Source: Candidatus Nanosyncoccus sp.
Lineage (GTDB): Bacteria > Patescibacteriota > Saccharimonadia > Saccharimonadales > Saccharimonadaceae
DNA length: 64,000 nucleotides
NCBI GenBank assembly: GCA_045641305.1
Contig: JAZUGS010000013.1
Location: 421 to 64,420 of the forward strand
Reading direction: 5' to 3'
Numbering within the stretch: the first letter of the stretch is position 1; every line of letters begins with the position of its first letter. Under the pieces are notes generated by a model. That model worked only from the letters and a program-made list of their open reading frames with translations. It did no database searches and had not been told where the DNA came from. Below are positions 17,397-54,487 of the stretch, in pieces. A program made the position numbers and the translations under genes.

Positions 17397-18187
17397 AAAT
17401 TTTAGACGGAAAAGAACTTGCAGGCTTTATTAAAGAACGACAATATCACGTCGTTTCTGGAATGCACCGCAAACCGAAATTGTTGATTATTCGTGATAGC
17501 GATAATCCCGTAATTACGAAATATGTTGAGCTTAAAAAACGCTACGGTGACGATATTGGCGTAGTAGTAGAAGATTTTTACGCAAGATCGACAGACGAAA
17601 TTCGCGAGAAAGTTTTGGCAGCGAATATCGATACATCAATAGACGGAATAATCATTCAGCTGCCAATTATTGAGCGTGAGAAAACCGATGAATTGACGGG
17701 GCTGATTGCGGCGGAAAAAGATGTGGATGGGCTTAGTGATAATGGCGATTTTGATTCGGCAACCGCCACGGCAATTAATTGGCTACTGGCTGGATACGGG
17801 ATTGAAATGTCGCAGGCGGCAATCGCATTGGTGGGGCGTGGCAAGTTGGTGGGGGCGCCCCTCTACAAAATGTGGACAAATTCAGGATACCACGTAACGA
17901 TGTTCCATAGAGGTGATGACTTGACAAAGCTTAAGGATTTTGATATAATAGTGACAGCGACTGGTAGTCCGCGTTTGATTTTGAATGATTATGTAAAATC
18001 TGGCGCCGTAATAGTGGACGCAGGGACTGCTTCGGAAAATGGGGTTCTAATGGGTGATGTTGATGATACCATAAGAGAGCGGACCGATCTTGCTGCCATT
18101 ACGCCAAAAATTGGCGGCGTGGGACCTTTGACCGTAACCTGCTTGTTCGAGCATGTGATTGAGTCCGCAAAAAGCAAAAGCGCCTAG
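17393..18187 (+). CDS. folD: Bifunctional methylenetetrahydrofolate dehydrogenase/cyclohydrolase
   Basis: ILDGKELA, DGIIIQLP, EKDVDG and TPKIGGVGPLTV motifs. Confidence 0.93.
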   Translation: MKILDGKELAGFIKERQYHVVSGMHRKPKLLIIRDSDNPVITKYVELKKRYGDDIGVVVEDFYARSTDEIREKVLAANIDTSIDGIIIQLPIIEREKTDELTGLIAAEKDVDGLSDNGDFDSATATAINWLLAGYGIEMSQAAIALVGRGKLVGAPLYKMWTNSGYHVTMFHRGDDLTKLKDFDIIVTATGSPRLILNDYVKSGAVIVDAGTASENGVLMGDVDDTIRERTDLAAITPKIGGVGPLTVTCLFEHVIESAKSKSA

Positions 18188-18229
18188 TGGGCGCTTTACT
18201 TTAGAAGGAGGAAGTGATAGAATGTAGAC

Positions 18230-18300
18230 ATGGATGAGCTCTAGAAACTCATCGTTTTGGTTGGTGATTACTGTTCTGTTTGAACAGTAATCTTTTTAAT
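18230..18300 (+). ncRNA. Candidate antisense (antitoxin) sRNA to copy 2 peptide mRNA
   Basis: A TTTACT...TGaTAGAAT promoter at about 18195-18223 is followed by hairpin GATGAG/CTCATC, then terminator ATTACTGTT-loop-AACAGTAAT plus a T tract. Confidence 0.6.
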
Positions 18301-18342
18301 TTTAGGCTTTACTACAAGTTTGAAATGAAATTCAATCTCCAT
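18268..18342 (-). CDS. 24-aa small peptide MEIEFHFKLVVKPKIKKITVQTEQ, candidate type I toxin (copy 2)
   Basis: AAGGAGG SD; promoter TTGCAA-N16-TATTAT at about 18485-18512; paralog of 1248-1322. Confidence 0.7.
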   Translation of the reverse strand: MEIEFHFKLVVKPKIKKITVQTEQ

Positions 18343-18575
18343 AGCATCCTCCTTAGTTTTTGTTTTTATCTAACTAAACTTTGGGGGACTTCACCCAACT
18401 TATCTAGAATTGTCACGATTTATAAATCCCCCTCACACGAAGGATCTATAATGTTCGAAAATTAAAAATCTCCAACCCGATGTCTATAATACATAGATTG
18501 TGTAGTTTTGCAACCCCGTGAGAAAATTTTGTGAAAGATAGGGAAATTTTAAGCCTAGGCGGGATGAATAAACTA

Positions 18576-28096: not shown

Positions 28097-28296
28097 GATA
28101 AAATCTCCTTTTCTAAAAATCGTTCTGTGGCTGGACCACAATTTTTGGGACAGGCTAACTTGTTAAACTACGGTTTTACAACTACGCTTTCATTATAGCA
28201 CATATGTTAAAATATGTCAATAGTTATATCATAAAAACCATATGCTTAACAAAAAAACAGCCCTCGCGGGCCTCCGTCCAATCCTCAAAGACTTGT

Positions 28297-38729: not shown

Positions 38730-39650
38730 TTAATCTCCAGTCGCCTGAATGGCGAAGTTAAATTTGTTGATAGCACAGTAATTAAAATCTTGAACTTTGT
38801 AGTTTTCGGGGGTAGAACAGTAATTGCCGCCGGCCATGATATTGATGCCACCCTTAACCGTAGCGAGAATGAAAGTACCAGAATAAAGGGCGTTTTTGGT
38901 ATATTCGTTTTGAGCAGGTTTGGCAAGATTAAGATCATAGAAAGCGAGATTGTCGTTGCCACTACTTAGAATAATGTCGATAGGGTCTTCGGAAAGTTTG
39001 CCAAAGCGATCGGCGTCGGAGATGTCAAACTCGGTATTGAGATCGGCGGGGGCTTCGTAATTGTCGGCGTCGGTTTTGGTAATGGACGAAACGCAAACGG
39101 AGCGGTTGGGATCGAGAACCTTTAAGAGTCGGAAGTTACTGATGGTTTTCTTTTCGTTGGCATTGTTGCGGTAAGTGAGACTGGCCTTGTCGGGAGTGGC
39201 AACGATATAGCTATTAGAATCAAAGAAATATCCGCTATTCCAGAGATAGGAATAGGTACCTGTACAGAAGGCGCCATAGACTGGGGTGCTCGAAATAACG
39301 GTGCCCTCAGAACCAGCATCTTTGCCAATGGTGACAGTGGCGGTGCGGGTGAGGGAGACAAAATTGTAGGCGCCGTCAGATTCGCAGGCTTCGCGTGGGG
39401 TAGAATTAGCATAGACCGTGGAGCAAAGATTGGTGATTTCCTTGGCGGAAGAATTGGAGATGGCGCTCTTCAAATCGTCGATAATATCCATGCCAGTGGT
39501 GTTAACCTGCTTCATGGTGAGGCCACGTTGATAAGCGGAAACGAGATTAGTAGTGATAACCGCAACTGTAATAGAAAGCAGAGCAATAAAGCCAATAGAA
39601 ATAGCAAGCTCTACAAGAGTAAAACCGGTACGTTTCCGTGTATTATGCAT
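38730..39650 (-). CDS. Type IV minor pilin (PilW-like)
   Basis: Prepilin motif GFTLVELAISI. Confidence 0.85.
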   Translation of the reverse strand: MHNTRKRTGFTLVELAISIGFIALLSITVAVITTNLVSAYQRGLTMKQVNTTGMDIIDDLKSAISNSSAKEITNLCSTVYANSTPREACESDGAYNFVSLTRTATVTIGKDAGSEGTVISSTPVYGAFCTGTYSYLWNSGYFFDSNSYIVATPDKASLTYRNNANEKKTISNFRLLKVLDPNRSVCVSSITKTDADNYEAPADLNTEFDISDADRFGKLSEDPIDIILSSGNDNLAFYDLNLAKPAQNEYTKNALYSGTFILATVKGGINIMAGGNYCSTPENYKVQDFNYCAINKFNFAIQATGD

Positions 39651-39676
39651 ATGTTTATTATAACACATTTGGTATT

Positions 39677-40468
39677 TTACTTGCACCTATTTTGACTTGG
39701 ATCGTCGAGTGGGATTACCTCGACGCTGGAGGAATTACGAGCGCCAGCAGAGAGGCGGACGTTGCGACGTTTGCCACCATAAAGAGTATCGTCGCTGGTG
39801 CTAATGCAAAAATCAACATCTTCGGTGTTTTTGAAATTGCTGAGCGCGGCGAGAAGTGGGTTGAATGGGTTGCCGGTCTGGTTGTGAATGGCCTTGTTGA
39901 CCTCGACGGTCTGGTTGCTGAGTTTTTGCATGACGTAGGTATAGATAGTGCCGGACATGGGCGAGCGAACCACCATGATGGCGCCGTAAAAATCATTGCC
40001 ATTCGTGTCCTGGAGTGTGGCGTCCCACTTAAGCGAGTAGCCTTCGGCATAGCCGGCAGGGGTATAGGTGGTATCACCGTCTTTTTTAAGGACGACATTG
40101 GCATTTAATGTTTTAAGTGCAGCGAGAACATCACTACCGCTAATGGCGCCGTCGGCATCGCCGATGATATCGTAGGTGAAGATTTCTTGACGATTATTGT
40201 CGCCACCACCAAGATTGACAGATTCACCAAAGGTAACGAGCTTGCCATAAATGGCTTTGTCGGAACGACCTTTGTCGATTCCCTGCGGGTCAGAAACTTT
40301 GGAATAAATGCCACGGAGAAACTCGGCAAAATCTTGAGTAGTGTCGTTGTAACGCTGTTGCGAAATGGAATTGTTGGTACTAACCATAATGCCGGCCACA
40401 AGAAGCCCAGTGATAGCAAGAAATAAACCAATTTCAATAAGTGTAAAGCCTTTGCGCATTTTGCTCAT
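39677..40468 (-). CDS. Type IV minor pilin (FimT/GspH-like)
   Basis: Prepilin motif KGFTLIEIGLFL. Confidence 0.85.
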   Translation of the reverse strand: MSKMRKGFTLIEIGLFLAITGLLVAGIMVSTNNSISQQRYNDTTQDFAEFLRGIYSKVSDPQGIDKGRSDKAIYGKLVTFGESVNLGGGDNNRQEIFTYDIIGDADGAISGSDVLAALKTLNANVVLKKDGDTTYTPAGYAEGYSLKWDATLQDTNGNDFYGAIMVVRSPMSGTIYTYVMQKLSNQTVEVNKAIHNQTGNPFNPLLAALSNFKNTEDVDFCISTSDDTLYGGKRRNVRLSAGARNSSSVEVIPLDDPSQNRCK

Positions 40469-40526
40469 GGTTATATTATAACAAAAAATCTCGACTGTGC
40501 GTCGAGATTTTTTAGTATGCGGCTAA

Positions 40527-41051
40527 CTAGTTGTCGTTGCAGTAGGCACCGCTTTCGAGGTAGCCGTAAACGGCGTAGCGACGATCGCCGAGCTTGCTAT
40601 CAAACTCTGGTGCACCATCAGTACATTTTGCAGATTTAATTACATAGACAGTAGTAGCGCCACTATCTGAGCTGAGAGTATATTTCTTACCAGCTGCACC
40701 ATTTTGAACACTAACTAGGTAAGTATTACCGTTTGGATCTATGAAACCATCCTGTAAGTATGACTTGAGGAAGCCATCGGTATAGGTGGATGCGCCGATT
40801 TTAGCATTGGAACCATTCCATGCATAAGTGGCAATAGCTGGCAGAGCGCCACGGTTGTTGGATGAATAGTTAGTAATAGTGGTGGCAAGCAAAGCATAAT
40901 CATCTTTACGCTGCGTATCACGTTGCGAGCTTTGAAGTGCTGGTAAGGCAACGAAGACCATCAAGAAGATGAGACCAGCGATAGCAAGCACGAGCACGAC
41001 TTCGATGATGGTGAAGCCTTTTTTAGCTTTGGCCAAATTTGTTTTTTTCAT
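40527..41051 (-). CDS. Type IV major pilin
   Basis: KGFTIIEVVLVLAIAGLIFLMVFVALPALQSSQRDTQRK; own terminator at about 40486-40512. Confidence 0.9.
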   Translation of the reverse strand: MKKTNLAKAKKGFTIIEVVLVLAIAGLIFLMVFVALPALQSSQRDTQRKDDYALLATTITNYSSNNRGALPAIATYAWNGSNAKIGASTYTDGFLKSYLQDGFIDPNGNTYLVSVQNGAAGKKYTLSSDSGATTVYVIKSAKCTDGAPEFDSKLGDRRYAVYGYLESGAYCNDN

Positions 41052-41111
41052 TAATATCCTTTCTTTTATTAATTTAATCATAACAAAAACTCACAAAAAA
41101 GCAATAGCAGT

Positions 41112-42047
41112 TTAATTCCCTTTTTTGCGATTTTTAGATTTTGCCACAAGGTAGATGATGATGGATATAATAGCAAAGATAATAATGGCGAGCAGCCAGA
41201 TAGGGCAGACAATCAGATTTTTCTCAACAACCGAAATCTCTCCAAAGATTTTTACCACCTGCTTAGCCCTAAAAATCCCAACGAGTGGTAAACTACAAGT
41301 TTGTGAATGATAGCGATTGGTTTCTGGCATTACCAAACTTTTGTCTGGATTTTCTTCATTCGTACAGAGTTCCTCATTAGAGAATAGTGGCCAAACTTGC
41401 AAAGTGTATTCGGCATCAGTATGAATATTGCCGTCATTTTTCACCATTGAAGTCGCAGACAACTCATTGTTTAAGCTAAAGCTTGGAATGCTATTTTGAA
41501 GAATTTGTCCTTCTTCGCGGGTTTCACCAGCGATTTCGGCGTATATAATATATGCAATTTGCCGGTTTTCGACGATTGCAATACCTTCTCCGCCTTGATT
41601 TTTGTCACTATTGTCACGAACAAGAATTGTTGCATACTGGCCACCTGCCGGTGCATCGTTCGGTACATTGATAATATAGTGGATTTGTTGCGTCTCGTTA
41701 GGGGATACGCTCCCAGACTCTGTTATAACTTCGATCCAATCTTTAATCTGGTTATAGCTAGATGTTGCCTCGACGTCTACACTACCATAATCATCACCAG
41801 TCTTTTCGTCTTTCCCCTGGCTAAAAGAACCGACTGATGTTATAAACTCCAAATTAGCCTCGGCATCGTTAGGATTGGAGATATTAAAATACCCATCATA
41901 TCGCTCGCCGGGCGCCAAGATAATAGAATCAGCCATTGGTGAAACATTCATCGTAGATGTTGCGAATATATTTCCTGAACTAGCTAATCCGAAGAAGCCC
42001 GCAATTATTGCGGTAAAAACCGCTACTTTAACTTTTGATAATTTCAT
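41112..42047 (-). CDS. DUF916/WxL-interacting-like surface protein with C-terminal TM (cassette A)
   Basis: VSPMADSIILAPGE...ISNP...P.DAPAGGQYA..., C-terminal TM and basic tail; paralog of 47820-48743. Confidence 0.65.
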   Translation of the reverse strand: MKLSKVKVAVFTAIIAGFFGLASSGNIFATSTMNVSPMADSIILAPGERYDGYFNISNPNDAEANLEFITSVGSFSQGKDEKTGDDYGSVDVEATSSYNQIKDWIEVITESGSVSPNETQQIHYIINVPNDAPAGGQYATILVRDNSDKNQGGEGIAIVENRQIAYIIYAEIAGETREEGQILQNSIPSFSLNNELSATSMVKNDGNIHTDAEYTLQVWPLFSNEELCTNEENPDKSLVMPETNRYHSQTCSLPLVGIFRAKQVVKIFGEISVVEKNLIVCPIWLLAIIIFAIISIIIYLVAKSKNRKKGN

Positions 42048-42059
42048 AATCTCCTTTAC

Positions 42060-42620
42060 TTATTTATTAAATGTGCAAGAAAAATTCTTGTCTTCGTAGT
42101 TTTTTACAACTTCATCTGCTGACGAAAAATCGAGTTTTTCAAATGTGTCCGAATCGATATAAAACAACTTTGCTGTCTGGCTTGTAAGTTGACCTATCTC
42201 GCCAAATAAATTGATCTGCATTGAGGAATCCGTATGGGAAAAAGAGGGTGAGAAGGATTCGGGATTTTTTGAGGTAGTACTCATAAAGATATTGTAATCG
42301 GCATGAGCAGAAGCATCTGCGTATCTTGCGCTTTCTTCTGAGCCGTATTCGCCATTATAAGTGAATGATATTTTGTCTGCTGTGCCACTCCTAAAAGTAA
42401 GTTTTACGGTATAAAGCGAGGATTCGGAAATATCCTCAAAAAACGAAACAAAAGATGGTTTTGAAGATTTGCAAATAACTGGGCTAATACTGTCCTGAAC
42501 TTTTTCCACTGAGGTTGTAGTAGTTTTTTCTTGAAAAAGAAAATATATTCCAACGGACACAATGATAAAGCACAGAATTATTATTGCATATTTAAAAGTA
42601 TAATCTTTTTTCTTATCCAT
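42060..42620 (-). CDS. N-terminally anchored surface protein (cassette A)
   Basis: Single TM and a terminal Cys pair; paralog of 47194-47778. Confidence 0.7.
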   Translation of the reverse strand: MDKKKDYTFKYAIIILCFIIVSVGIYFLFQEKTTTTSVEKVQDSISPVICKSSKPSFVSFFEDISESSLYTVKLTFRSGTADKISFTYNGEYGSEESARYADASAHADYNIFMSTTSKNPESFSPSFSHTDSSMQINLFGEIGQLTSQTAKLFYIDSDTFEKLDFSSADEVVKNYEDKNFSCTFNK

Positions 42621-42692
42621 AATTAGTCCTAAAAGCACAGCCCCCTAAAGAGCTGTGCTTAATAACTTGCCCACTAGCAATCAGGCACCTAA

Positions 42693-43262
42693 TTAGTTCT
42701 TAGGGTGTGCGAGGGTGTAGGTTACTTTACCAGTATAGGTATCAGCTTGTTGAGTGTCGCTGATCCAGACTTGGTAGGTAGAAGTGATGGTCGTACCAGC
42801 CTGACCAATAGAGCCGTCAGTGTCAGAGGCAACATCGGTTGCAGTAGATGGAATGGCCATAAAGGATTTGTATCCTTCTACAGCTTTGTCACCAGCAACT
42901 TTGAATGCCCAGTTGGAAGTTGCGCCAGAAGTTGCCGTACCAGTAGCGATATCGGTGCCATTTTTAGTAGCATTCATTGCGGTTTTATTAGTAGTATCGT
43001 CACCAGCTCCAACAGCAGTCAAATGCCAACCAGAAACATCGTTACATTTAATAGTTAATTCTGAACCAGCAAAGTCGCTTTTAAGTTGGTTGTTGGTCAT
43101 AGTTTCTGTCGGGGTAGCACCAGTGCCACTCAAAGAACAAGCTGAATCGATGGTAACCGTAACTGTATCAGTAATTGGAGTTAAGGTATCCGCCGCAAGG
43201 ACACCCATAACTGGAGTGGCGGCTAAAGCTGCAGCTGCGACTACACCTAAAGTTTTTTTCAT
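42693..43262 (-). CDS. Secreted WxL/Csu-pilin-like beta-sandwich subunit (cassette A)
   Basis: Signal peptide; VTVTIDSACSL...LTIKCN...WAFKV...TYTGKVTYTLA; paralog of 46416-47111. Confidence 0.65.
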   Translation of the reverse strand: MKKTLGVVAAAALAATPVMGVLAADTLTPITDTVTVTIDSACSLSGTGATPTETMTNNQLKSDFAGSELTIKCNDVSGWHLTAVGAGDDTTNKTAMNATKNGTDIATGTATSGATSNWAFKVAGDKAVEGYKSFMAIPSTATDVASDTDGSIGQAGTTITSTYQVWISDTQQADTYTGKVTYTLAHPKN

Positions 43263-43326
43263 ATTAATATGTTTCCTTTCCCACCTTTTATGGCGGAAAT
43301 TATAGTTTATATTTGTGTTAAAATAT
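43227..43326. repeat. Left arm of a 99-100 bp inverted repeat
   Basis: Reverse complement of 46353-46451 except for a 1-nt indel in a T run; covers the 5' UTR and first 12 codons. Confidence 0.95.
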
Positions 43327-43344
43327 GACCTTTAACATTTCTTA

Positions 43345-43373
43345 TTATACGTAAGCGTAATGTGGTTGTCAAG
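43345..43373 (-). promoter_or_regulatory. Consensus sigma70 promoter driving cassette A
   Basis: TTGACA-accacattacgcttacg(17)-TATAAT, just inside the left inverted repeat. Confidence 0.9.
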
Positions 43374-43639
43374 CATTTTTGTGAAAAAATTTCTACATAA
43401 AATACGGCAGGGTATTATAGCTGAGCAAAATTAGCCGTAATTGATTAATGCCTCAAAAAACCGGCATTCGCGGTCGGTACAAGAACCAAACAGAAAATAA
43501 TTGCACGCAGATGTATATACCGAGAGTAGATTTTGATATTTTACAAATATTTTGTGAGAAAATTTATACAAAAGCTTAGGCTAAATTACTCTAAATGCTT
43601 GATATATACGATTCCTATTATCTGTGATAAAATATAATT

Positions 43640-44341
43640 ATGAAAGAAAAAAACCGTCAATTTGTAATATTTGGGGATTTTCGCAAGATTTCTTCTGGCG
43701 AACTAACAGAGAAACTTGCAAAGCTAAAAGACACCTTTAAGTATCAACCTGGGTTGTCGCTAGATCCGGATAGCTTTGGCTTAGGGCAACCTAGCTTTGT
43801 CCCACAATTGTCTAGACCAGCGTTTTATTCACAAAGTGGTAACGAATCTATAATTTTTGGAGTTAATAGAATTGTCCTACAGGAAAATACGGCCGACATA
43901 GACAACTATGATGATTTTATTCTAAACTGCATTAACATAACAGAAGAAATTATAAAAAAATTGGGAACTCGTGTTGCGCGGATAGCGGTAAATGGAGCTT
44001 TCTTATCCGACCAGACGCAAAAGACAGACGCTATCTATGATAAAATATTTAATTCTGATTATTCTTTGTGCGATAGTTGTTCTGATGAATGGAGAATAAC
44101 GACAAACGGCAAAAATAATGACGTGAATTTAGGTTGCTCCATCAATAGGGTTGTAAACATAATAAGGGGTAACGGAATTATTTCACCGGATGGAGCAATT
44201 GTTGGTCCCCTTGTGACTATGTATGATTATAACACCGAGGCCGAATATGCTGGCGATTTCCATCTTAAAGATATAAAAATTTTTGCAGACACAGCTAAAG
44301 AATTCAGGAAGCAAGTAAAAAGTTTATGTTCCAACCAATAG
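43640..44341 (+). CDS. Hypothetical protein, TIGR04255-like
   Basis: Low-GC 233-aa ORF with RIVLQ...RIAVNG...DYNT pattern; first gene of a 3-gene operon. Confidence 0.5.
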   Translation: MKEKNRQFVIFGDFRKISSGELTEKLAKLKDTFKYQPGLSLDPDSFGLGQPSFVPQLSRPAFYSQSGNESIIFGVNRIVLQENTADIDNYDDFILNCINITEEIIKKLGTRVARIAVNGAFLSDQTQKTDAIYDKIFNSDYSLCDSCSDEWRITTNGKNNDVNLGCSINRVVNIIRGNGIISPDGAIVGPLVTMYDYNTEAEYAGDFHLKDIKIFADTAKEFRKQVKSLCSNQ

Positions 44342-44877
44342 CAATACCGCAACCAGAAACATCATATATATTATACAACTGCCCAAGCGAGGATAGCTTA
44401 TCGATAAGTGTGCCTGCAAAAAATTTATCTTCTGCTTTTAGTGATAGTACCATACAATGTACAAACAATTATAAAAATAACGGCGACATAGCAATATATA
44501 GTCTTATCACAAGGTTGAGTACACTTACCGCGGAAGATTTTTTACCAAGCAACGATACTACGTGGTATTTAGATGAGATTGCAAAAACAAAATATAGCCC
44601 TTGGTATAATTCGCTTCTGTCCAAGATTAAGAGTGCTCCATTTGTTGTTCAATATGCGTTTCTGTCATTTTTGTCAGACCAATCTTATAATGAAGTTAAT
44701 CCATACGAAGAACAGTTGACGTTTAGTGTGTTAAAATCCAACGATGTCATTTTGCAAGAACGAGCGCTTAATGTCCTATTATCTTGGGGAAATTTTTCAA
44801 ATAAACAGGCTCTGGTTGGTATAAAAATAAAAAATAAGTTTCTTAATAAGATTTTTATGGATTTTATAAATGCCTAA
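44326..44877 (+). CDS. Hypothetical protein
   Basis: Overlaps both neighbours; low GC. Confidence 0.65.
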   Translation: MFQPIAIPQPETSYILYNCPSEDSLSISVPAKNLSSAFSDSTIQCTNNYKNNGDIAIYSLITRLSTLTAEDFLPSNDTTWYLDEIAKTKYSPWYNSLLSKIKSAPFVVQYAFLSFLSDQSYNEVNPYEEQLTFSVLKSNDVILQERALNVLLSWGNFSNKQALVGIKIKNKFLNKIFMDFINA

Positions 44878-45442
44878 TCCTAGCGGCAGATATTTTGCAC
44901 GTCTACTCACGTTTGGGGTAGGACTTTGGCCAGACGGCGAAAATACTCCATTTGAAAATGTGAATAAAATATGTGCAGATGTTATAACGCAAGAGTTAAA
45001 AACGGCACAAAATACTTTGTCTTGGTGGGTATTAGATAGTCTAGACGATAACAATATTATAACTGCCGTTGCAGCCATAATATCTACTTTTAATAAACCT
45101 ATCGATGAGATAATGTACTTAGTGGCTATACCCGTGGAGGCTATGCCTGAAAAAATAGTATTTAAGAACAGCCCAGAAAATGCACGCGTTGCGATAGTTG
45201 ATTTCAAGTCTAATCATTTTGATTCTGTGGACATGAATTATAATAGCATAGGGATTGTCGCAGAGATAATTGCGCGAGGAACTAGCGGGATTGATGATAC
45301 GATAAAAATAATACCAGTATGTACAAAAAATGCTGTAAAGCTATTGGCGTCACTTAGCGAAGAAGATGGAAAACTTGATGCAACCGCACTTGGAGATAAG
45401 ATGCGGAAGCTTATCCGGCAACAAATAGACCAACCAAAATGA
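44870..45442 (+). CDS. Hypothetical protein, possible ADP-ribosyltransferase-like toxin
   Basis: YFAR and ELKTAQNTLSWW could correspond to the R and S strands of an R-S-E ART fold (inference). Confidence 0.4.
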   Translation: MPNPSGRYFARLLTFGVGLWPDGENTPFENVNKICADVITQELKTAQNTLSWWVLDSLDDNNIITAVAAIISTFNKPIDEIMYLVAIPVEAMPEKIVFKNSPENARVAIVDFKSNHFDSVDMNYNSIGIVAEIIARGTSGIDDTIKIIPVCTKNAVKLLASLSEEDGKLDATALGDKMRKLIRQQIDQPK

Positions 45443-45495
45443 CCTCGATCGTATAGTTAAATACGAAATTTACGATTCCAAGACTTTGGTATAAC

Positions 45496-45666
45496 TTAAT
45501 TTCGTTGTGTCATCCCTGCTTTTTTGATTATTTTATCTTGTTCCCGTTTAGCTTCACTTAAAGAAACACGAAAGATAATTCTGGCATTTTCGCTCATATT
45601 CGGCGAAACCATATCATCTAATGTTGGTTTATTTTTCATGAATTTAAGTTTTATTTTATCAATCAT
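45496..45666 (-). CDS. 56-aa protein translationally coupled to the zeta-like gene
   Basis: Hand-translated MIDKIKLKFMKNKPTLDDMVSPNMSENARIIFRVSLSEAKREQDKIIKKAGMTQRN; start overlaps the upstream stop. Confidence 0.55.
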   Translation of the reverse strand: MIDKIKLKFMKNKPTLDDMVSPNMSENARIIFRVSLSEAKREQDKIIKKAGMTQRN

Positions 45667-46348
45667 TTAAGATATATTCCTTTAAGCTTTCTCTATTATA
45701 ACAGTTATATTGAATTTTGTCAATTTCATTTATTGAAACGTCTTCCTTATAATCGCCTACAATATTATCCTTATTTTTTACAACTACATCTAATATTATT
45801 TTATCACATTCTATTTTTACATCTTTTATATTTTTTGTGATTTTAAAATAAGAATCAATAAAGCCATCTATGGCAATAGCACGATGTTCGACCTTCTCCC
45901 TAGCGAGAGTAAAATTCCATGCTATTTTTGGGTCTTGAAAGATGTATATGATTTTGACCTTATAGCCATGCGAAATTGCCCTTCTTACATCAAAAAGCGC
46001 ACTTTTACTGCTGAATGTGCCGTCCATAATAAAATCAATGCCTCTTTTCACTACGATGTCATAAGTTTTATTTAGTAAAGCTGATGCTCCAGCTCGATAT
46101 CTATCCGCTATCTCTGGACTATATCCGTCAATCTTCGTGGCGATTTCGTCCATATCCAGACGAACCACATTTAAATTGGATAAGCGGATGAGGCTCTTTG
46201 TAAATTCCGTTTTTCCAGCTCCAGGGAGACCAGCCATAAATATGGCTGTTTTTTGGCCATCTGATTTTGCACCAGATTCGCTAATCAATTTGTTAGCAAA
46301 ATCTTTTTTATGTGAATTAATCCATGACTTTATCCCTACATAATCCAT
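45659..46348 (-). CDS. Zeta toxin-like P-loop kinase
   Basis: IFMAGLPGAGKTEF, LDMDEI, FIMDGTF, GYKVKIIY and REK..HR motifs. Confidence 0.8.
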   Translation of the reverse strand: MDYVGIKSWINSHKKDFANKLISESGAKSDGQKTAIFMAGLPGAGKTEFTKSLIRLSNLNVVRLDMDEIATKIDGYSPEIADRYRAGASALLNKTYDIVVKRGIDFIMDGTFSSKSALFDVRRAISHGYKVKIIYIFQDPKIAWNFTLAREKVEHRAIAIDGFIDSYFKITKNIKDVKIECDKIILDVVVKNKDNIVGDYKEDVSINEIDKIQYNCYNRESLKEYILND

Positions 46349-46352
46349 GTGT

Positions 46353-46451
46353 ATATTTTAACACAAATATAAACTATAATTTCCGCCATAAAGGTGGGAA
46401 AGGAAACATATTAATATGAAAAAAACTTTAGGTGTAGTCGCAGCTGCAGCT
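46353..46451. repeat. Right arm of the 99-100 bp inverted repeat
   Basis: Reverse complement of 43227-43326. Confidence 0.95.
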
Positions 46452-47111
46452 ATGGCTGCTACCCCGATGTTTGGCGTTTTGGCCGAAGGCCCAGTAGACG
46501 TGACTTCGCACACTGATAATATTTCGGTCAACATTGGCGCAGTTTGTACTCTCGGTGGCGTTACTGAAGGTGTTACTACTGGCGTTAATGCCACTACTCA
46601 CGCAAATGGCGACGGTTCTCCAGCTTTGGGCGCTTGGGATAAAAGTGATGCTTCTGGGACCAATACACTTAGCGGCACAATGATTCCGGGTTCTGCCGAT
46701 GCAGATTTTGGTTCTAGTACGTTCACCATTAAATGCAACAACGCTAAGGGATATACGCTTTCCGCTATTGGTGATGGCACCGAAAACCATACTACCCAAC
46801 TTTATGATTCAACAAGCGAAAAATCCATTGCCACTGCTGATGGCACTCCAGCTAAAACTTCGTCCGCTTGGGCATTCAAGTTTGAATCTACAGCAAAGAA
46901 AAAAGATGGCAATACTTCAATCATTGCCACTGGCTATGATGCATTCAAAGGCATCCCAGCAGCTTCTACTGTAGTTGCTTCTCAAGACAAAGCCAATGAT
47001 TTGGCTACTGGTGAGACCGTTAAGGTTACTTATGCCGTTAGTGTTTCTACTGCACAGGAAGAGGGTACTTATACCGGTGCAGTTGCCTATACGCTCGCTC
47101 AAGTCAACTAA
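46416..47111 (+). CDS. Secreted WxL/Csu-pilin-like subunit (cassette B)
   Basis: Same first 12 residues as 42693-43262; ISVNIGAVCTL...FTIKCN...WAFKF...TYTGAVAYTLA. Confidence 0.65.
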   Translation: MKKTLGVVAAAAMAATPMFGVLAEGPVDVTSHTDNISVNIGAVCTLGGVTEGVTTGVNATTHANGDGSPALGAWDKSDASGTNTLSGTMIPGSADADFGSSTFTIKCNNAKGYTLSAIGDGTENHTTQLYDSTSEKSIATADGTPAKTSSAWAFKFESTAKKKDGNTSIIATGYDAFKGIPAASTVVASQDKANDLATGETVKVTYAVSVSTAQEEGTYTGAVAYTLAQVN

Positions 47112-47193
47112 TTTGATTCAAGCTAGAGGCTTTAAAAGCTACCGTCTGATTGTGGGCGGTAGCTTTATTGCTAAAAATATTTAAGGAAATACC

Positions 47194-47778
47194 ATGGGAT
47201 CAGAAAAATTAGAGAAGAAAGACGGGGATAAAAAAAATAAGGCTACTAGTATTATGATTATAGCCACGATTTTGGCTGCCATAATTATTGTACTACTAAC
47301 ATTATTGCTTAGCGGAAAAACTACTACTACCGGCAATTATCCAGATAATGAAAGTAACAAGTCATTGACATGTGTTAGTAATGATATCAATTATCCTATC
47401 TTTACTTATGATAATTCCACTAAGAAAGAAGCTAAAATTAATATATTATTTTCTAATGATAGCATAAGATCTATTGCTCTTACATACAGTTTGTATTATG
47501 GCGATGCTACTAGTATTATAGCTAGCGAGGCGCATAATCATGCAGCGATGAACATCAGCTTTGGTGCTAATAATTTAGGCACAGACGCCCTTAATGCGAA
47601 ATATGCCAAATTAGAAAATCGTATGCAAATGAACTTATATGCTACCAATAGCGAAATAAATAATGTTGCTTTGAGATATTTCTTGATAAACATAGATAAT
47701 GATCCTACCCCTGATACCGTGTCTAGTTACAAGGCTATTTATGAAGATGAAGGCATGAATTGTGAAGAAAGCGAATAA
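47194..47778 (+). CDS. N-terminally anchored surface protein (cassette B)
   Basis: Paralog of 42060-42620 (A(E/H)..H(A/D)..NI..., MQ.NL(F/Y), terminal Cys). Confidence 0.7.
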   Translation: MGSEKLEKKDGDKKNKATSIMIIATILAAIIIVLLTLLLSGKTTTTGNYPDNESNKSLTCVSNDINYPIFTYDNSTKKEAKINILFSNDSIRSIALTYSLYYGDATSIIASEAHNHAAMNISFGANNLGTDALNAKYAKLENRMQMNLYATNSEINNVALRYFLINIDNDPTPDTVSSYKAIYEDEGMNCEESE

Positions 47779-47819
47779 TAGAGAATGAGCTCTTAAAATT
47801 ATTAATAACAAGGAGATAT

Positions 47820-48743
47820 ATGAATAAATTAAAGAAATTGGGCAATAAAATAACCTGCGGTGTTTTAATGATGGTTTTTACCCTATGTGGTGGTAGTGCT
47901 AGCGTGTTTGCAAGTTCACAATTTTCAGTGTCGCCGATGAATCAACGAATTATTCTTACGCCAGGTGAATCCTATATAGGCTCTTTTATGGTATCAAATC
48001 CAGCAGATAGCACTAGTGATTTTAACTATAAAATTACCGTTAGACCAGTTTATATTGATAACAATTATAATGTCGTCAGTGAAAATAATGGCGATTTTAA
48101 CCAAATAGTTGATTGGACCAAAATAAATAATCCAGAGGGGACTCTTGCGCCAAATGAGGCAAGGGAAATTACTTTTCAAGTGAATGTGCCAATGGATGCG
48201 CCTGCTGGTGGGCAATATGTTGCAATTAATGTTATGTCGGCCGACCCAATTGGGGATGATGGTGCTGTCAATATTCAGTCTAAATATGCCATTATGCACA
48301 TTGTATATGCTGAAATTGCTGGAACTACGATTCGCCAAGGTGAAGTACAGGATGCTCATATACCTAGTTTCTTGTTTTCTGGAAATATCTCTGGTATTTC
48401 TACAATTAAAAATACTGGCAATGTACACTCGGATGGTATTTATAAACTCCAAGTGTTCCCTCTATTTTCAGACGAGGAACTCTACACTAATGAAGAAAAT
48501 CCAGAAAAAAAGATCATCCTACCAGATCGCACCCTCATGAATACTACATATTGGGAGGATACTCCGTCCGTGGGCATCTTCAATGTGATTTACACCGCCG
48601 AATTCGAAGGAGTAACCACCGAGGTTAAGAAAATGGTCATCGTCTGCCCTATCTGGCTCCTTGCCATTATCATCTTTGCCGTCATTTCCATTATCATCTA
48701 CCTCATCACAAAGTCCAAAACGCGCAAAAAGTCTAGCCGTTAG
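47820..48743 (+). CDS. DUF916/WxL-interacting-like surface protein (cassette B)
   Basis: Paralog of 41112-42047; shares PLFS.EEL.TNEENP and VCPIWLLAIIIFA. Confidence 0.65.
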   Translation: MNKLKKLGNKITCGVLMMVFTLCGGSASVFASSQFSVSPMNQRIILTPGESYIGSFMVSNPADSTSDFNYKITVRPVYIDNNYNVVSENNGDFNQIVDWTKINNPEGTLAPNEAREITFQVNVPMDAPAGGQYVAINVMSADPIGDDGAVNIQSKYAIMHIVYAEIAGTTIRQGEVQDAHIPSFLFSGNISGISTIKNTGNVHSDGIYKLQVFPLFSDEELYTNEENPEKKIILPDRTLMNTTYWEDTPSVGIFNVIYTAEFEGVTTEVKKMVIVCPIWLLAIIIFAVISIIIYLITKSKTRKKSSR

Positions 48744-48819
48744 TCGCTGGCGATAAAAAAGTTTCAATAAATAATCCCTAAAACGGGGATTATTTATTTT
48801 TTCATACTATCATACCTAT

Positions 48820-49662
48820 ATGAAACCTATTTATTCCCAAATCAATCAATATCTGGACTATTGCGAGCACGCGCGCAATATGTCGCCAGCTACTATGCGC
48901 GCCAAACGTAGTATTTATCATCGTTTTGCTGAAGTTATCGCGTGCGACAATCTCAAAAAACTCACCAATGCTGATTTTGATCGCTGGACCCGCTATGGGC
49001 TGTCGCGCGGAGCTTCACCGCGTAGCATTAATGCTTATAATGCCAATATTATGGCAATGCTGAATTATTATCGGGAGATGGGCATGAAAATTCCCCTCAA
49101 AAGCCCACTAGTGCATAAACTCAAAGAAGGAGAGGTGCGTCGGAGCTTTTATACGCGCTCCCAAATTCGCGAAGTTTTGCGCTATGCCAATCCTACAACC
49201 GCGCTAATGATTAAAATCTGCTTTGACAGCGGTATGCGTATTGCTGAACTTACAAATCTTAAACTCGCCAATATTCATGAAAATCGGATTAATTTTGTAG
49301 GCAAGGGCAACAAACCGCGCGAAGTATATCTTTCTGACGGCACAATGCGGTTGCTGCAAGAATATATTAAACGCCACCAGATTAAAAATTATCTCTGGCC
49401 AAGCCCGCGGAATAGTGGAGTGGAGCGACCTCTTACCGTTCACGCTGTTCGCAAACGTCTTCGCCAACCTTTTTACCGAGCGGGGTATATAGATTTTTAT
49501 CCTCATTCCCTGCGGCATTCTTTTGCTACTGATCTTGAGTTTCGTGGCGCTTCTGTCGCCGAAATTCAACAGATGATTGGGCATTTTTCGATCGCAACCA
49601 CCGAACGCTATGTCCATGCGCTAGATGGCCATCTGGCGGAGTTATTTGCTAAATATAGATAA
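48820..49662 (+). CDS. Tyrosine recombinase (XerC/D-like)
   Basis: Full catalytic set: GMRIAEL (R), GKGNK (K), HSLRH, GH and RY. Confidence 0.93.
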   Translation: MKPIYSQINQYLDYCEHARNMSPATMRAKRSIYHRFAEVIACDNLKKLTNADFDRWTRYGLSRGASPRSINAYNANIMAMLNYYREMGMKIPLKSPLVHKLKEGEVRRSFYTRSQIREVLRYANPTTALMIKICFDSGMRIAELTNLKLANIHENRINFVGKGNKPREVYLSDGTMRLLQEYIKRHQIKNYLWPSPRNSGVERPLTVHAVRKRLRQPFYRAGYIDFYPHSLRHSFATDLEFRGASVAEIQQMIGHFSIATTERYVHALDGHLAELFAKYR

Positions 49663-50694: not shown

Positions 50695-51027
50695 ATTTTC
50701 ACTCCTTTCCGCTGGGAGACCTCTAATAGCCTGGGTCTATCGTTCAGCAAGATCGCCCGTCAAACCCTCAAAGAAACTTTAAGAATTGGCACCTCGCCAG
50801 AACAACTAAAAATTTTAACGAACCACACGGGGAGGATAGCATGGCTGGGATGGTTTTGCAACCGCATGAAAAATATTTGTGGAAGCTAAGGAAATTTTAA
50901 GCCTAGGCAGGATGGGTTTTACGCCAAAGTGCCAAGTTTTTATCCTCTTGCGCTTTGGGTTTGTTTGGTGTATAATGTGGGGGTAAATCCCGTAAGGGTC
51001 GGCCCTGCTTAAGCGGGGAAAACAATC

Positions 51028-53732: not shown

Positions 53733-53739
53733 AAATTTG

Positions 53740-53990
53740 AGAAGATCGAGGGGCGAACACGCGGAACTAGGAACCGCCGAAACCCTAGCGAGCGACACAA
53801 CGCACGGACATGCCGTTGTACCGATTGTTGTTGTTGGACGGGTTGACGTTACTGGAATTGAAGTTCAAGTTGTACGCGTTGCTGCTATTGTTGGACGTAG
53901 ACGACCAGTAGTTGCCGTTGTTGCCGGTATTGTAGACAGCACCGTAATTTCCGTTGTAGTTGCCACTACGCAGGAAGTAGAAAGGCGAAA
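53740..53990 (-). ncRNA. DGR template region (TR)
   Basis: 251-bp homolog of 54237-54487; the minus strand carries 20 AAC/AAT codons and no upstream start of its own. Confidence 0.95.
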
Positions 53991-54196: not shown

Positions 54197-54236
54197 TACA
54201 TGCAGTAATAACCTAAAGCGTTTTTTCTCCGAGTTC

Positions 54237-54487
54237 AGAAGATCGAGGGGCGAACACGCGGAACTAGGGACCGCCGAAACCCTAGCGAGCGACACAACGC
54301 ACGGACATGCCGCGGTACCGATTGAGGTCGTTGGACGGGTTGACGCTACTGGAATTGAAGTACAAGTAGTACGCGCAGCTGCTATTGGTGGACGTAGACG
54401 ACCAGTAGCGGCCGTAGCGGCCGGTACCGTAGACAGCACCGTAAAGCCCGAGGTAGAGGCCACTACGCAGGAAGTAGAAAGGCGAAA
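54237..54487 (-). repeat. DGR variable region (VR) plus IMH
   Basis: 26 mismatches to the TR by hand alignment: 25 at TR adenines and one non-adenine difference (54269 vs 53772) after the stop codon. Confidence 0.95.

Follow-up and report, generated by a model that had tools for sequence, protein, structure and literature searches.

The window, i.e., the whole 64,000-nt stretch of Candidatus Nanosyncoccus sp. DNA analysed here, carries two divergently oriented, paralogous three-gene cassettes, as a preliminary description had proposed. Cassette A is read on the minus strand and consists of gene 1 (A1; 42693-43262), gene 2 (A2; 42060-42638) and gene 3 (A3; 41112-42047), and cassette B is read on the plus strand and consists of B1 (46416-47111), B2 (47194-47778) and B3 (47820-48743). 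All six reading frames are intact in the ORF list, and the proteins of the two cassettes are 45% (gene 1), 24% (gene 2) and 44% (gene 3) identical. A1 is predicted to be a secreted, single-domain Ig-like pilin-type subunit and B1 an alternative pilin-type subunit, while A2, the paralog of B2, is small, has an N-terminal transmembrane segment and contains a KTTTT motif. [quoted passage not shown] A bidirectional terminator-like hairpin (48766-48798) separates cassette B from the gene of a Xer-like tyrosine recombinase (48820-49662, plus strand), which directly follows the cassette, is intact and had been overlooked in the preliminary description.

At their thresholds, neither Pfam nor NCBIfam recognised any of the cassette proteins. 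The Pfam family WxLIP_PGBD reached only E 0.041 on gene 3, below the cut-off, A2 had no family match in either database, and the WxL domain PF13731 found no Pfam match in the subunit, where the motifs are W-A-F and Y-T-L rather than a dual Trp-x-Leu. The structure of A1 was predicted using AF2 (pLDDT 88.6), and the top folds in a comparison of the model with the PDB were CsuA/B, Caf1 and FimA (E 1.6e-3, TM 0.42-0.57). The best PDB match of the B3 model was the Enterococcus faecium WxLIP (9i1y/9i25; E 7e-11, though with a TM of just 0.35-0.41), followed by the chaperones CfaA, CsuC, FimC and PapD. The earlier annotation of the products as WxL/Csu-like and DUF916-like is thus supported by the fold but not by the Pfam thresholds, and the predicted structures point to two cassette products, a Csu/Caf1-like pilin and a chaperone-like protein that is anchored in the membrane and resembles WxLIP and PamC. 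A1 has 266 homologs, the named ones being from Saccharibacteria, and for B1 no relative above 42% identity was found, so that its junctions are not comparable with those in other assemblies.

Inverted repeat, promoter and enclosed segment

A blastn alignment of the outward-read cassette starts matches 43227-43326 to 46353-46451 over 100 columns, with 99 matches and one gap, in agreement with the inverted repeat of 99-100 bp and one indel reported earlier. The left arm (minus strand) is the 5' box of cassette A, running from a core through a UTR hairpin and a ribosome-binding site to the ATG and the first 12 codons, and the right arm (plus strand) is the 5' box of cassette B, with its core at 46353-46374 and its hairpin at 46380-46400. 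In the left arm, the core ATATTTTAACACAAATATAAAC (43305-43326, minus strand) is a candidate recombination site identical in distant relatives, while the hairpin TTTCCGCC-ATAAAA-GGTGGGAA (43278-43299, minus strand) lies immediately 5' of the ribosome-binding site. The sole difference between the arms is one A in the loop of this hairpin. The match ends sharply at the inner edge of the arms and fades within the signal peptide at the outer one. Exact copies of the 15-nt core TAACACAAATATAAA number two in the 64 kb, one per arm, and allowing up to two mismatches retrieves the same two sites only, against 0.37 expected. The two cores are intact and match the family consensus exactly, and the window holds no other similar repeats except one unrelated non-coding pair. 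A symmetric 6-6-6 recombinase core, ATATTT-TAACAC-AAATAT, was also considered and was dropped because its left arm is not conserved in promoter-less copies.

A promoter matching the TTGACA-N17-TATAAT consensus at 12 of 12 positions (P; 43372-43344, minus strand) lies 17 nt inside the edge of the left arm, is found at this arm only and now faces cassette A; the conserved tail of P, GTTAAAGGTC (43327-43336), lies directly against the core. The window has four such perfect sites, where its base composition would predict 0.06. The inner edge of the right arm lacks a comparable outward promoter and is bounded solely by the start of the zeta-like gene (ATG at 46348). Both the promoter just inside the left arm and its lack of a counterpart on the right had been recognised in the preliminary description. 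P is presumably functional, judging from its sequence, and, as the only strong outward promoter, located 17 nt from the left core, it suggests that the assembled state expresses cassette A. The box itself also contains a TATAAT, earlier raised as a possible weak promoter that would speak against a switch. The equivalent in relatives is CTAATT or TTAATT, and since the TATAAT is confined to this lineage, it is unlikely to be a functional promoter and was dropped as a candidate, yet it might still give basal expression of both cassettes.

The arms bound a predicted invertible segment of 3,026 bp (43327-46352), which holds P and several cargo genes and has homologous counterparts seen in both orientations. 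On the plus strand, three overlapping ORFs of 233, 183 and 190 aa (43640-45442; ORF list) had no matches in Pfam, NCBIfam or PADLOC, and the third matches phrog_10743, a PHROGs family of unknown function (E 1e-13). The remaining cargo (45496-46348, minus strand) consists of a gene for a zeta-toxin-family kinase (45659-46348; Pfam PF06414, E 6e-30) and a 56-aa ORF (45496-45666) that overlaps its stop and is preceded by a second perfect promoter, with a TG (45723-45695). A scan with Rfam returned tRNAs only. The segment is unusually large and its cargo is unrelated, and the recombinase gene lies outside it. This combination of an external recombinase and a large, cargo-bearing segment means that the copy in the window could be a frozen derivative.

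Related loci, recombinase and observed inversions

The comparison set consisted of 75 loci from gut and rumen Saccharibacteria, 20 of them multi-copy and 55 other. In relatives, the starts of the gene-1 paralogs form near-perfect inverted or direct repeats of 100-140 nt, and the multi-copy loci hold two to four paralogous genes or cassettes each. Exactly one box copy is linked to the TTGACA-N17-TATAAT...GTTAAAGGTC module in 18/20 multi-copy loci, as in the window, and in 17/20 if the core is defined more loosely. The comparison of synteny suggested in the preliminary description recovers the same design, with one promoter per locus in 17-18 of the 20 multi-copy loci. Box identity has a median of 98.8% within a locus and is 75% between loci, and the mature proteins encoded after boxes of the same locus are 35% identical. 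Such homogenisation of boxes within genomes, a case of concerted evolution, implies gene conversion. Conservation between species reaches 100% over the innermost 22-24 nt of the box, with 22 nt identical even where the proteins are ~50% identical, while the rest of the box drifts. Several relatives display promoter-only segments of 150-450 bp between divergent cassettes, and four loci (L005, L012, L032 and L106) have invertible-type elements of 150-330 bp. A broad search of metagenomes using the core pattern yielded 77 loci, only 13 of which were real boxes.

The recombinase is the single gene of its type in the window. It scores against NCBIfam models of the XerA/XerC/XerD type with E 1e-38 to 5e-30, below their equivalog cut-offs, and its alignment to Pyrococcus abyssi XerA (4a8e) places the R, K, HxxR, H and Y motifs. 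Homologs were found in 16/20 multi-copy box loci and in 0/55 of the others (Fisher p = 6e-13), often inside the repeat pair. The encoded enzyme would thus be the likely catalyst of inversion, a link between recombinase and site that is correlative.

Inversion itself can be observed at homologous loci. In a sheep-gut run (X36), both orientations of the 170-bp promoter segment of L005, flanked by a 21-nt repeat, coexist without other polymorphism, the reference junctions having depths of 3 and 4.6 and the inverted junctions of 2 and 2, and in a further run (X37) a contig joins 3319 and 3539 on opposite strands. An exact copy of protein P0103 is encoded in a block of 5,025 bp, over which assemblies are 99.98-100% identical (L153-L155). 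Depending on the assembly, the promoter module is joined to gene 200, gene 222 or gene 202, giving three junction configurations. Here, differences within the boxes stay with their gene, and the third box recombines although it has only 23 nt in common with the others. In L005 and L153-L155, the crossover falls within the homologous 21-23 nt, and relatives show inversion of a 5-kb block of genes that lies between such cores. Among the closest relatives of A1, the gene is promoter-linked in L169 and not in L165, L166 and L168; it is apparently promoter-linked in L167, where the sole sign is a 6-nt AAGGTC at the contig end and the sequence is 99.86% identical to L165 from the core onward. Three loci from the metagenome search with the core pattern (L092, L098 and L101) agreed with one another, and none showed an alternative orientation.

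For the window strain, a single orientation is known, from the assembly. Exact-protein look-ups of the zeta-like protein and A1 gave no matches, the species-specific repeat pattern gave 0 matches in metagenome contigs, and a single partial read, with <90% identity, came from the four 2026 raw-read runs that bear the same organism label. The best public runs contain just 5-24% of the 31-mers of the window, and orientation cannot be phased in them as their Logan contigs break at the repeat; no RNA runs with the window sequence were found. As the strain was absent from the runs and contigs searched, it is by homology that it may be expected to switch orientation.

Proposed switch and alternative explanations

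Taken together, the locus is likely, with a probability of roughly 80%, to be a site-specific DNA-inversion switch of the type with one promoter and several silent cassettes. Each cassette would supply a secreted pilin-type subunit with an Ig fold and two membrane proteins, one of them small and the other anchored and chaperone-like, and would start with the same 100-nt box holding a recombination core of ~22 nt. The recombinase encoded at 48820-49662 would bring the inverted cores together, with strand exchange falling roughly within TTTAACACAAA, where homology places the putative crossover (43312-43322). The segment would then flip, and P would read through the right box into cassette B. The earlier proposal that inversion moves a single promoter from cassette A to cassette B is supported by the one-promoter design of the relatives and by the inversions at homologous loci, and would extend to the window strain by homology. 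This gut saccharibacterium, an episymbiont, can thus probably alternate its surface fibres.

The preliminary description had cited as precedents the sap locus of Campylobacter fetus and the slp loci of Lactobacillus, where DNA between conserved 5' regions is inverted. General, RecA-type homologous recombination at the 100-nt repeats, with the neighbouring recombinase as a housekeeping Xer, would fit a repeat of 99% identity that far exceeds the length of a recombinase core, the within-genome homogenisation of boxes with the gene conversion it implies, and the best scores of the recombinase being to Xer-type models. Yet this explanation is improbable, as 21 nt are enough for coexisting orientations in one sample (L005), a third box recombines with 23 nt while box-internal differences never cross over (L153-L155), the core stays unchanged between species as the remaining box drifts, and the recombinase tracks multi-copy boxes. 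With the recombinase gene adjacent and so short a repeat sufficing in L005, the mechanism is most likely site-specific recombination at the conserved core of ~20 nt at the inner edge of the repeat. Since the repeat is far longer than such a core needs, homologous recombination or gene conversion also acts on it.

Marginally less improbable is that the switch is static in the window strain, the repeat being a regulatory and signal-peptide region that two paralogous operons share and that gene conversion keeps similar, with both cassettes or only A expressed. The one orientation observed, the TATAAT within the box and the atypical architecture, in which the segment carries 3 kb of cargo and the recombinase gene lies outside it, are all consistent with this. 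It is difficult to reconcile, however, with two intact cores matching the family consensus, an intact recombinase and intact frames in cassettes A and B, the inversion of a 5-kb gene-carrying block between cores in relatives, and the absence of a conserved box TATAAT from them. Finally, metagenome assemblies often break or misjoin at repeats and many related contigs end near boxes, raising the concern of an assembly artefact, voiced in the preliminary description, which would here be a collapsed or chimeric join of two strains. The probability of such an artefact is negligible: the same architecture recurs in dozens of assemblies that are independent of one another and come from different assemblers, which excludes an assembly artefact as its origin, and the arms differ by an indel and lead into different coding sequences. 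The concern is therefore effectively refuted, and the site-specific switch stays the preferred reading.

Implications and comparison with known systems

Saccharibacteria, whose genomes are very small, live as obligate episymbionts and are believed to contact the host bacterium through their surface fibres. The switch could therefore reprogramme the host or receptor to which the cell attaches, and, if it operates as proposed, escape from phage or mucosal antibody would also be possible, amounting to programmed host-range or antigenic variation in a small-genome CPR bacterium. A conserved, dedicated inversion switch would represent an investment in programmed surface variation, as in mycoplasmas and Bacteroides, and would make host attachment, host range and the evasion of immunity or phage accessible to experiment in a hard-to-culture phylum. 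It may tentatively be speculated that gut and rumen Saccharibacteria share a lineage-wide, recombinase-driven promoter shufflon alternating two to four antigenically unrelated, chaperone-assembled fibres per cell line. As the recombinase gene is sited downstream of cassette B behind a terminator, orientation-dependent feedback on its expression is a further possibility. Inversion at the boxes would also lead assemblies of these genomes to break often at such loci, and the compact core site and its recombinase form a candidate genetic tool for CPR bacteria.

Regarding the products, the Pam pili of Ca. Mycosynbacter amalyticus consist of Ig-fold, Sec-secreted subunits, with PamC/PamD having two beta domains and a C-terminal anchor (bioRxiv 10.64898/2026.03.03.709456); pili of this type are built by donor-strand exchange, and their chaperones are FimC/PapD-like and held in the membrane. 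WxLIP of the WxL/WxLIP clusters of Firmicutes likewise combines two beta domains, the Ig-like DUF916 and DUF3324, with a transmembrane helix at the C-terminus (PMC10599100). Gene 3 resembles PamC/PamD and WxLIP in predicted fold and C-terminal anchor, and gene 1 has a predicted pilin-like fold but encodes a single domain of ~160 residues, whereas PamA/B have two domains. Neither publication mentions a recombinase or inversion, and full-text literature searches, in keeping with the preliminary description, found no account of a promoter-inversion switch in Saccharibacteria.

Promoters of the fimS type (invertons), as in Escherichia coli, Bacteroides and Clostridioides difficile, are short promoter elements between inverted repeats that are flipped by a tyrosine recombinase. 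The short promoter-bearing elements of L005, L012, L032 and L106 resemble them. Yet, fimS-type elements switch one operon ON or OFF, whereas the choice here would be between ON-A and ON-B, or three-way in three-box relatives, and the window element spans 3 kb and carries cargo. The sap locus of Campylobacter fetus reportedly undergoes RecA-dependent inversion at conserved regions of ~600 bp, as described by Dworkin and Blaser in 1996-97. It has in common with the window one promoter on an invertible segment between opposed cassettes with a conserved 5' region, and its segment can carry other genes, as here. It differs in that a core of 21-23 nt suffices in the homologs of the present locus and a dedicated tyrosine recombinase appears to be linked to it, and in that its products are S-layer proteins rather than the pilin-type fibres predicted here.

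The closest parallels are in kind already known: in vpma of Mycoplasma agalactiae, vsp of M. bovis and vsa of M. pulmonis, inversion by Xer1, Mbr and HvsR, respectively, moves a unique promoter to silent genes (PMC2268961). These loci and the window all combine several paralogous surface-protein genes with a single promoter upstream of one copy, a 5' UTR and signal-peptide region shared by all copies (99% identical in the window) that holds the recombination site, a candidate one in the window, and an adjacent tyrosine recombinase gene. The saccharibacterial loci differ in belonging to another phylum, in comprising three-gene pilus-type cassettes or single pilin genes instead of lipoprotein genes, and in an apparently unrelated core sequence. 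Many of the saccharibacterial relatives, unlike the mycoplasma loci, form a minimal two-cassette toggle around a promoter-only segment.

Two cassettes sharing one start

Re-examination of the window bore out every sequence statement of the preliminary description, which had proposed an invertible-promoter switch between two surface-protein cassettes. Two divergent paralogous three-gene sets face outward, cassette A on the minus strand (gene 1, 42693-43262; gene 2, 42060-42638; gene 3, 41112-42047) and cassette B on the plus strand (46416-47111, 47194-47778 and 47820-48743), with protein identities of 45%, 24% and 44% for genes 1, 2 and 3. Their starts form an inverted repeat with one indel (43227-43326 and 46353-46451; 100 columns, 99 identities, one gap). 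Each arm, here termed a box, spans ~65 nt of leader and runs on through codon 12, and identity stops sharply at the inner edge. A TTGACA-N17-TATAAT promoter with a 12/12 match (43372-43344, minus strand) lies 17 nt inward of the left arm and points toward cassette A. The right arm borders inward on nothing but the start codon (46348) of a zeta-toxin-family gene, with no comparable promoter there. Since four perfect sites of this type occur in the 64-kb window against 0.06 expected from composition, such consensus promoters are real signals in this organism.

Searches of Pfam and NCBIfam did not recognise the cassette proteins at threshold. A single Ig-like sandwich makes up the gene-1 model (pLDDT 88.6), with the chaperone-usher pilins CsuA/B, Caf1 and FimA as its top matches (E 1.6e-3, TM 0.42-0.57). 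In the gene-3 model (pLDDT 88.5), a signal peptide is followed by two beta domains and, at the C terminus, a transmembrane helix, an arrangement that agrees with the published WxLIP architecture (PMC10599100); E. faecium WxLIP (9i1y, 9i25; E 7e-11) matches it best, ahead of the pilus chaperones CfaA, CsuC, FimC and PapD. From these predicted folds, we interpret each cassette as encoding a small system for surface fibres built with the help of a chaperone, and leave the WxL/Pam family unassigned.

The gene-3 3' ends are alike too, from the transmembrane helix onward, with 79% identity in the window (41122-41228 and 48624-48730) and 92-98% in relatives (L069, 5153-5313/10602-10762; L041, 10853-10995/11605-11747). 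Together with the 5' boxes, the cassettes are thus bounded by conserved blocks at both ends, between which homologous recombination could replace whole cassettes. Downstream of cassette A lie three pilin-like genes with prepilin-type N-termini (GFTLIE/GFTLVE; 38730-41081, minus strand), an arrangement not seen among the relatives examined. The gap measures 30 nt if the ORF starts at 41081 as listed, or ~60 nt with the likelier start at 41051. No terminator-like hairpin was found in between, so these genes may share a transcript with cassette A and be affected by the switch.

Box and promoter module in related loci

An alignment scan with gene 3, using one genome per species, found 75 related loci with proteins 40-59% identical. 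Nearly all belong to Saccharibacteria of the gut or rumen, comprising Nanosyncoccus and further lineages sampled from goat, sheep, deer and yak. Many carry near-perfect repeats of 100-140 nt, inverted or direct and in two to three copies, which start gene-1 paralogs. The inner 22-24 nt of the window repeat, ATATTTTAACACAAATATAAAC, here called the core, is identical across many distant genomes, and the remainder of the box varies by genome. Boxes evolve in concert, as median identity within a locus is 98.8%, compared with 35% for the mature proteins behind them and 75% between boxes of different loci.

Every box copy was oriented by the direction of its gene before the upstream DNA was compared. 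This revealed a promoter module consisting of an A-rich tract, TTGACA, 17 nt, TATAAT, ~13 nt and GTTAAAGGTC abutting the core. The same design of boxes with a single promoter recurs in 17-18 of the 20 multi-copy loci: the module precedes exactly one box copy in 18 of them, as in the window, and in 17 under a looser definition of the core. Upstream of box copies without a module, the DNA is unrelated. In five loci (L005, L012, L032, L106, L030), the promoter is the sole content of the 150-450 bp between inverted boxes of divergent cassettes, as in a textbook invertible promoter; in five others (L036, L020, L069, L003, L013) the segment also contains a recombinase gene. The window segment (43327-46352) is a larger variant of 3 kb with four or five unrelated genes.

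The motif (C)TTGTGGAAAA(G/C)T is conserved in the promoter segments of L005, L012, L032, L106, L030, L008 and L153, where it precedes the -35 hexamer by ~40 nt, and absent from that of the window; a regulator or some accessory factor may bind there. Two promoter modules occur in L095 (318 and 3052), one for each of two box families, and L155 holds the promoter segment and a 202-aa gene in two diverged copies (1110-1520 and 6430-6840), so larger shufflon-like arrays exist. Elsewhere in the window, the spacer of a further perfect promoter (28192-28220, minus strand) contains CATATTTTAACA, an 11-12-nt match to the core that is probably a coincidence.

The leaders also share RNA features. A GC-rich hairpin immediately 5' of the ribosome-binding site occurs in 52 of 59 distinct leaders (mean for shuffled leaders, 0.85), and its stems vary by compensation (CUGC/GCAG, GCGC/GCGC, CCAC/GUGG, CCGC/GCGG, CUGG/CCAG and others). 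In the window it lies at 43278-43299 and 46380-46400, and the sole difference between the arms, one A, falls in its loop. A transcript initiated at the promoter would open with an 8-bp stem between module tail (UGUUAAAG) and core (UUUUAACA), which can form only with promoter and box joined. Our guess is that both structures stabilise the mRNA.

Several further elements were noted. A second perfect TTGACA-N17-TATAAT with upstream TG (45723-45695, minus strand) is embedded in the final part of the zeta-toxin-family coding sequence and is followed by a 56-aa ORF (45496-45666, minus strand) whose ATG overlaps the zeta stop (ATGATTGA). This ORF may encode an antitoxin-like partner in reversed order, and both genes are carried on the predicted invertible segment. 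A ~310-nt non-coding element forms an inverted pair 17 kb apart (1040-1420 and 18170-18560; 90-93% identical). It carries a TTGCAA...TATTAT promoter and a 24-codon ORF (MEIEFHFKLVVKPKIKKVTVQLER), and in the hairpins further downstream compensatory changes distinguish the copies; a partial third copy (50840-50914) has the promoter part alone in common, and an Rfam search of the element gave no family match. A 254-nt direct repeat (53737-53990 and 54234-54487) is 89% identical with a spacing of 497 nt.

Inversion observed in homologous loci

Both orientations can be followed in relatives. In L005, from a sheep-gut genome, a 170-bp promoter segment (3340-3509) is flanked by the repeat CATATATTGACACAAATATAA, which at only 21 nt can be crossed by 31-mer contigs. 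Sequencing run X36 contains 99% of the locus words with otherwise no difference; the reference junctions have depths of 3 and 4.6, and both inverted junctions are present at depth 2 each, their extra letters being exactly those predicted from the flipped segment. In run X37, one contig links 3319 to 3539 on opposite strands.

A second case was obtained by tracing the exact gene-1 protein P0103 on 24 ENA contigs. L153, L154 and L155 share a 5,025-bp block, delimited by two inverted cores, at 99.98-100% identity. The gene to which the promoter module is joined differs: gene 200 in L153, L156 and L157, and gene 222 in L155. L154 has the block in inverted orientation and the module flipped toward a third gene, 202. 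Two inversions, with three sites involved, account for these junction states. For the closest relatives of the cassette A gene-1 protein (81-83% identical), linkage of the gene to the promoter is seen in L169, is lacking in L165, L166 and L168, and appears to hold in L167, whose contig begins with AAGGTC, the 6 nt that end the module. From the first base of the core on, L167 is 99.86% identical to L165, and differences occur solely ahead of the core.

In the P0103-type loci, small differences inside the boxes remain with their own genes, and the third box has just TACATAACACATTTAACATAAAA in common with the others. Taken together with the L005 repeat, this limits the crossover to about TTTAACA(C/T)AAA. 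By homology, crossover in the window would fall at 43312-43322 and 46357-46367.

Recombinase, alternatives and known systems

An intact tyrosine recombinase gene (48820-49662), missing from the preliminary description, lies 77 nt past the cassette B stop, beyond a bidirectional hairpin, and no second gene of this type was found in the window. It matches XerA, XerC and XerD models (E 1e-38 to 5e-30) under the equivalog cut-offs, and alignment to archaeal XerA (4a8e) shows the Arg, Lys, His-x-x-Arg, His and Tyr motifs. Homologs 44-53% identical lie beside or between boxes in relatives. Counted by locus, recombinase homologs are present in 16 of 20 multi-copy loci versus 0 of 55 others (Fisher p = 6e-13). 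The recombinase and zeta-like genes have no ribosome-binding site (48800-48822 and 46348-46360), and -10-like hexamers (TACTAT and TAAAAT, respectively) ending 6-8 nt before the ATG would yield leaderless mRNAs; the zeta hexamer sits within the repeat arm and would thus be retained after inversion.

The promoter-flip reading of the preliminary description was essentially right and is now backed by family-wide and population evidence from relatives. The feature in the window is real, and at a probability of about 0.8 we propose that the recombinase brings the two inverted cores together and flips 43327-46352, by which the only strong outward promoter would pass from cassette A to B. Homologous recombination as the driver seems quite improbable, as repeats of 21-23 nt recombine in relatives and a recombinase gene is linked to the locus. 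That the strain in the window itself switches we infer from its intact, fully conserved anatomy; a switch frozen in this strain is unlikely, and a repeat created by assembly is hardly credible.

Full-text literature on phase or antigenic variation, inversion and WxL in Saccharibacteria, Patescibacteria or TM7 yielded no description of such a switch. The inversion systems found for Saccharibacteria were solely hsdS invertons of type I restriction systems (PMC7672463), and a preprint on Pam pili mentions neither recombinase nor inversion (bioRxiv 10.64898/2026.03.03.709456). The proposed promoter-inversion switch is of a known kind, but none had been described before in this phylum or for this cargo. 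As a two-cassette toggle it resembles C. fetus sap. Inversion at sap is RecA-dependent. In the vpma, vsp and vsa systems of Mycoplasma, site-specific rearrangement places silent genes behind a single promoter; the sites there lie within 5' untranslated regions of identical sequence, and an adjacent gene encodes a tyrosine recombinase (PMC2268961). The window shares this design: one promoter, candidate recombination sites in the 5' region and an adjoining tyrosine recombinase gene.
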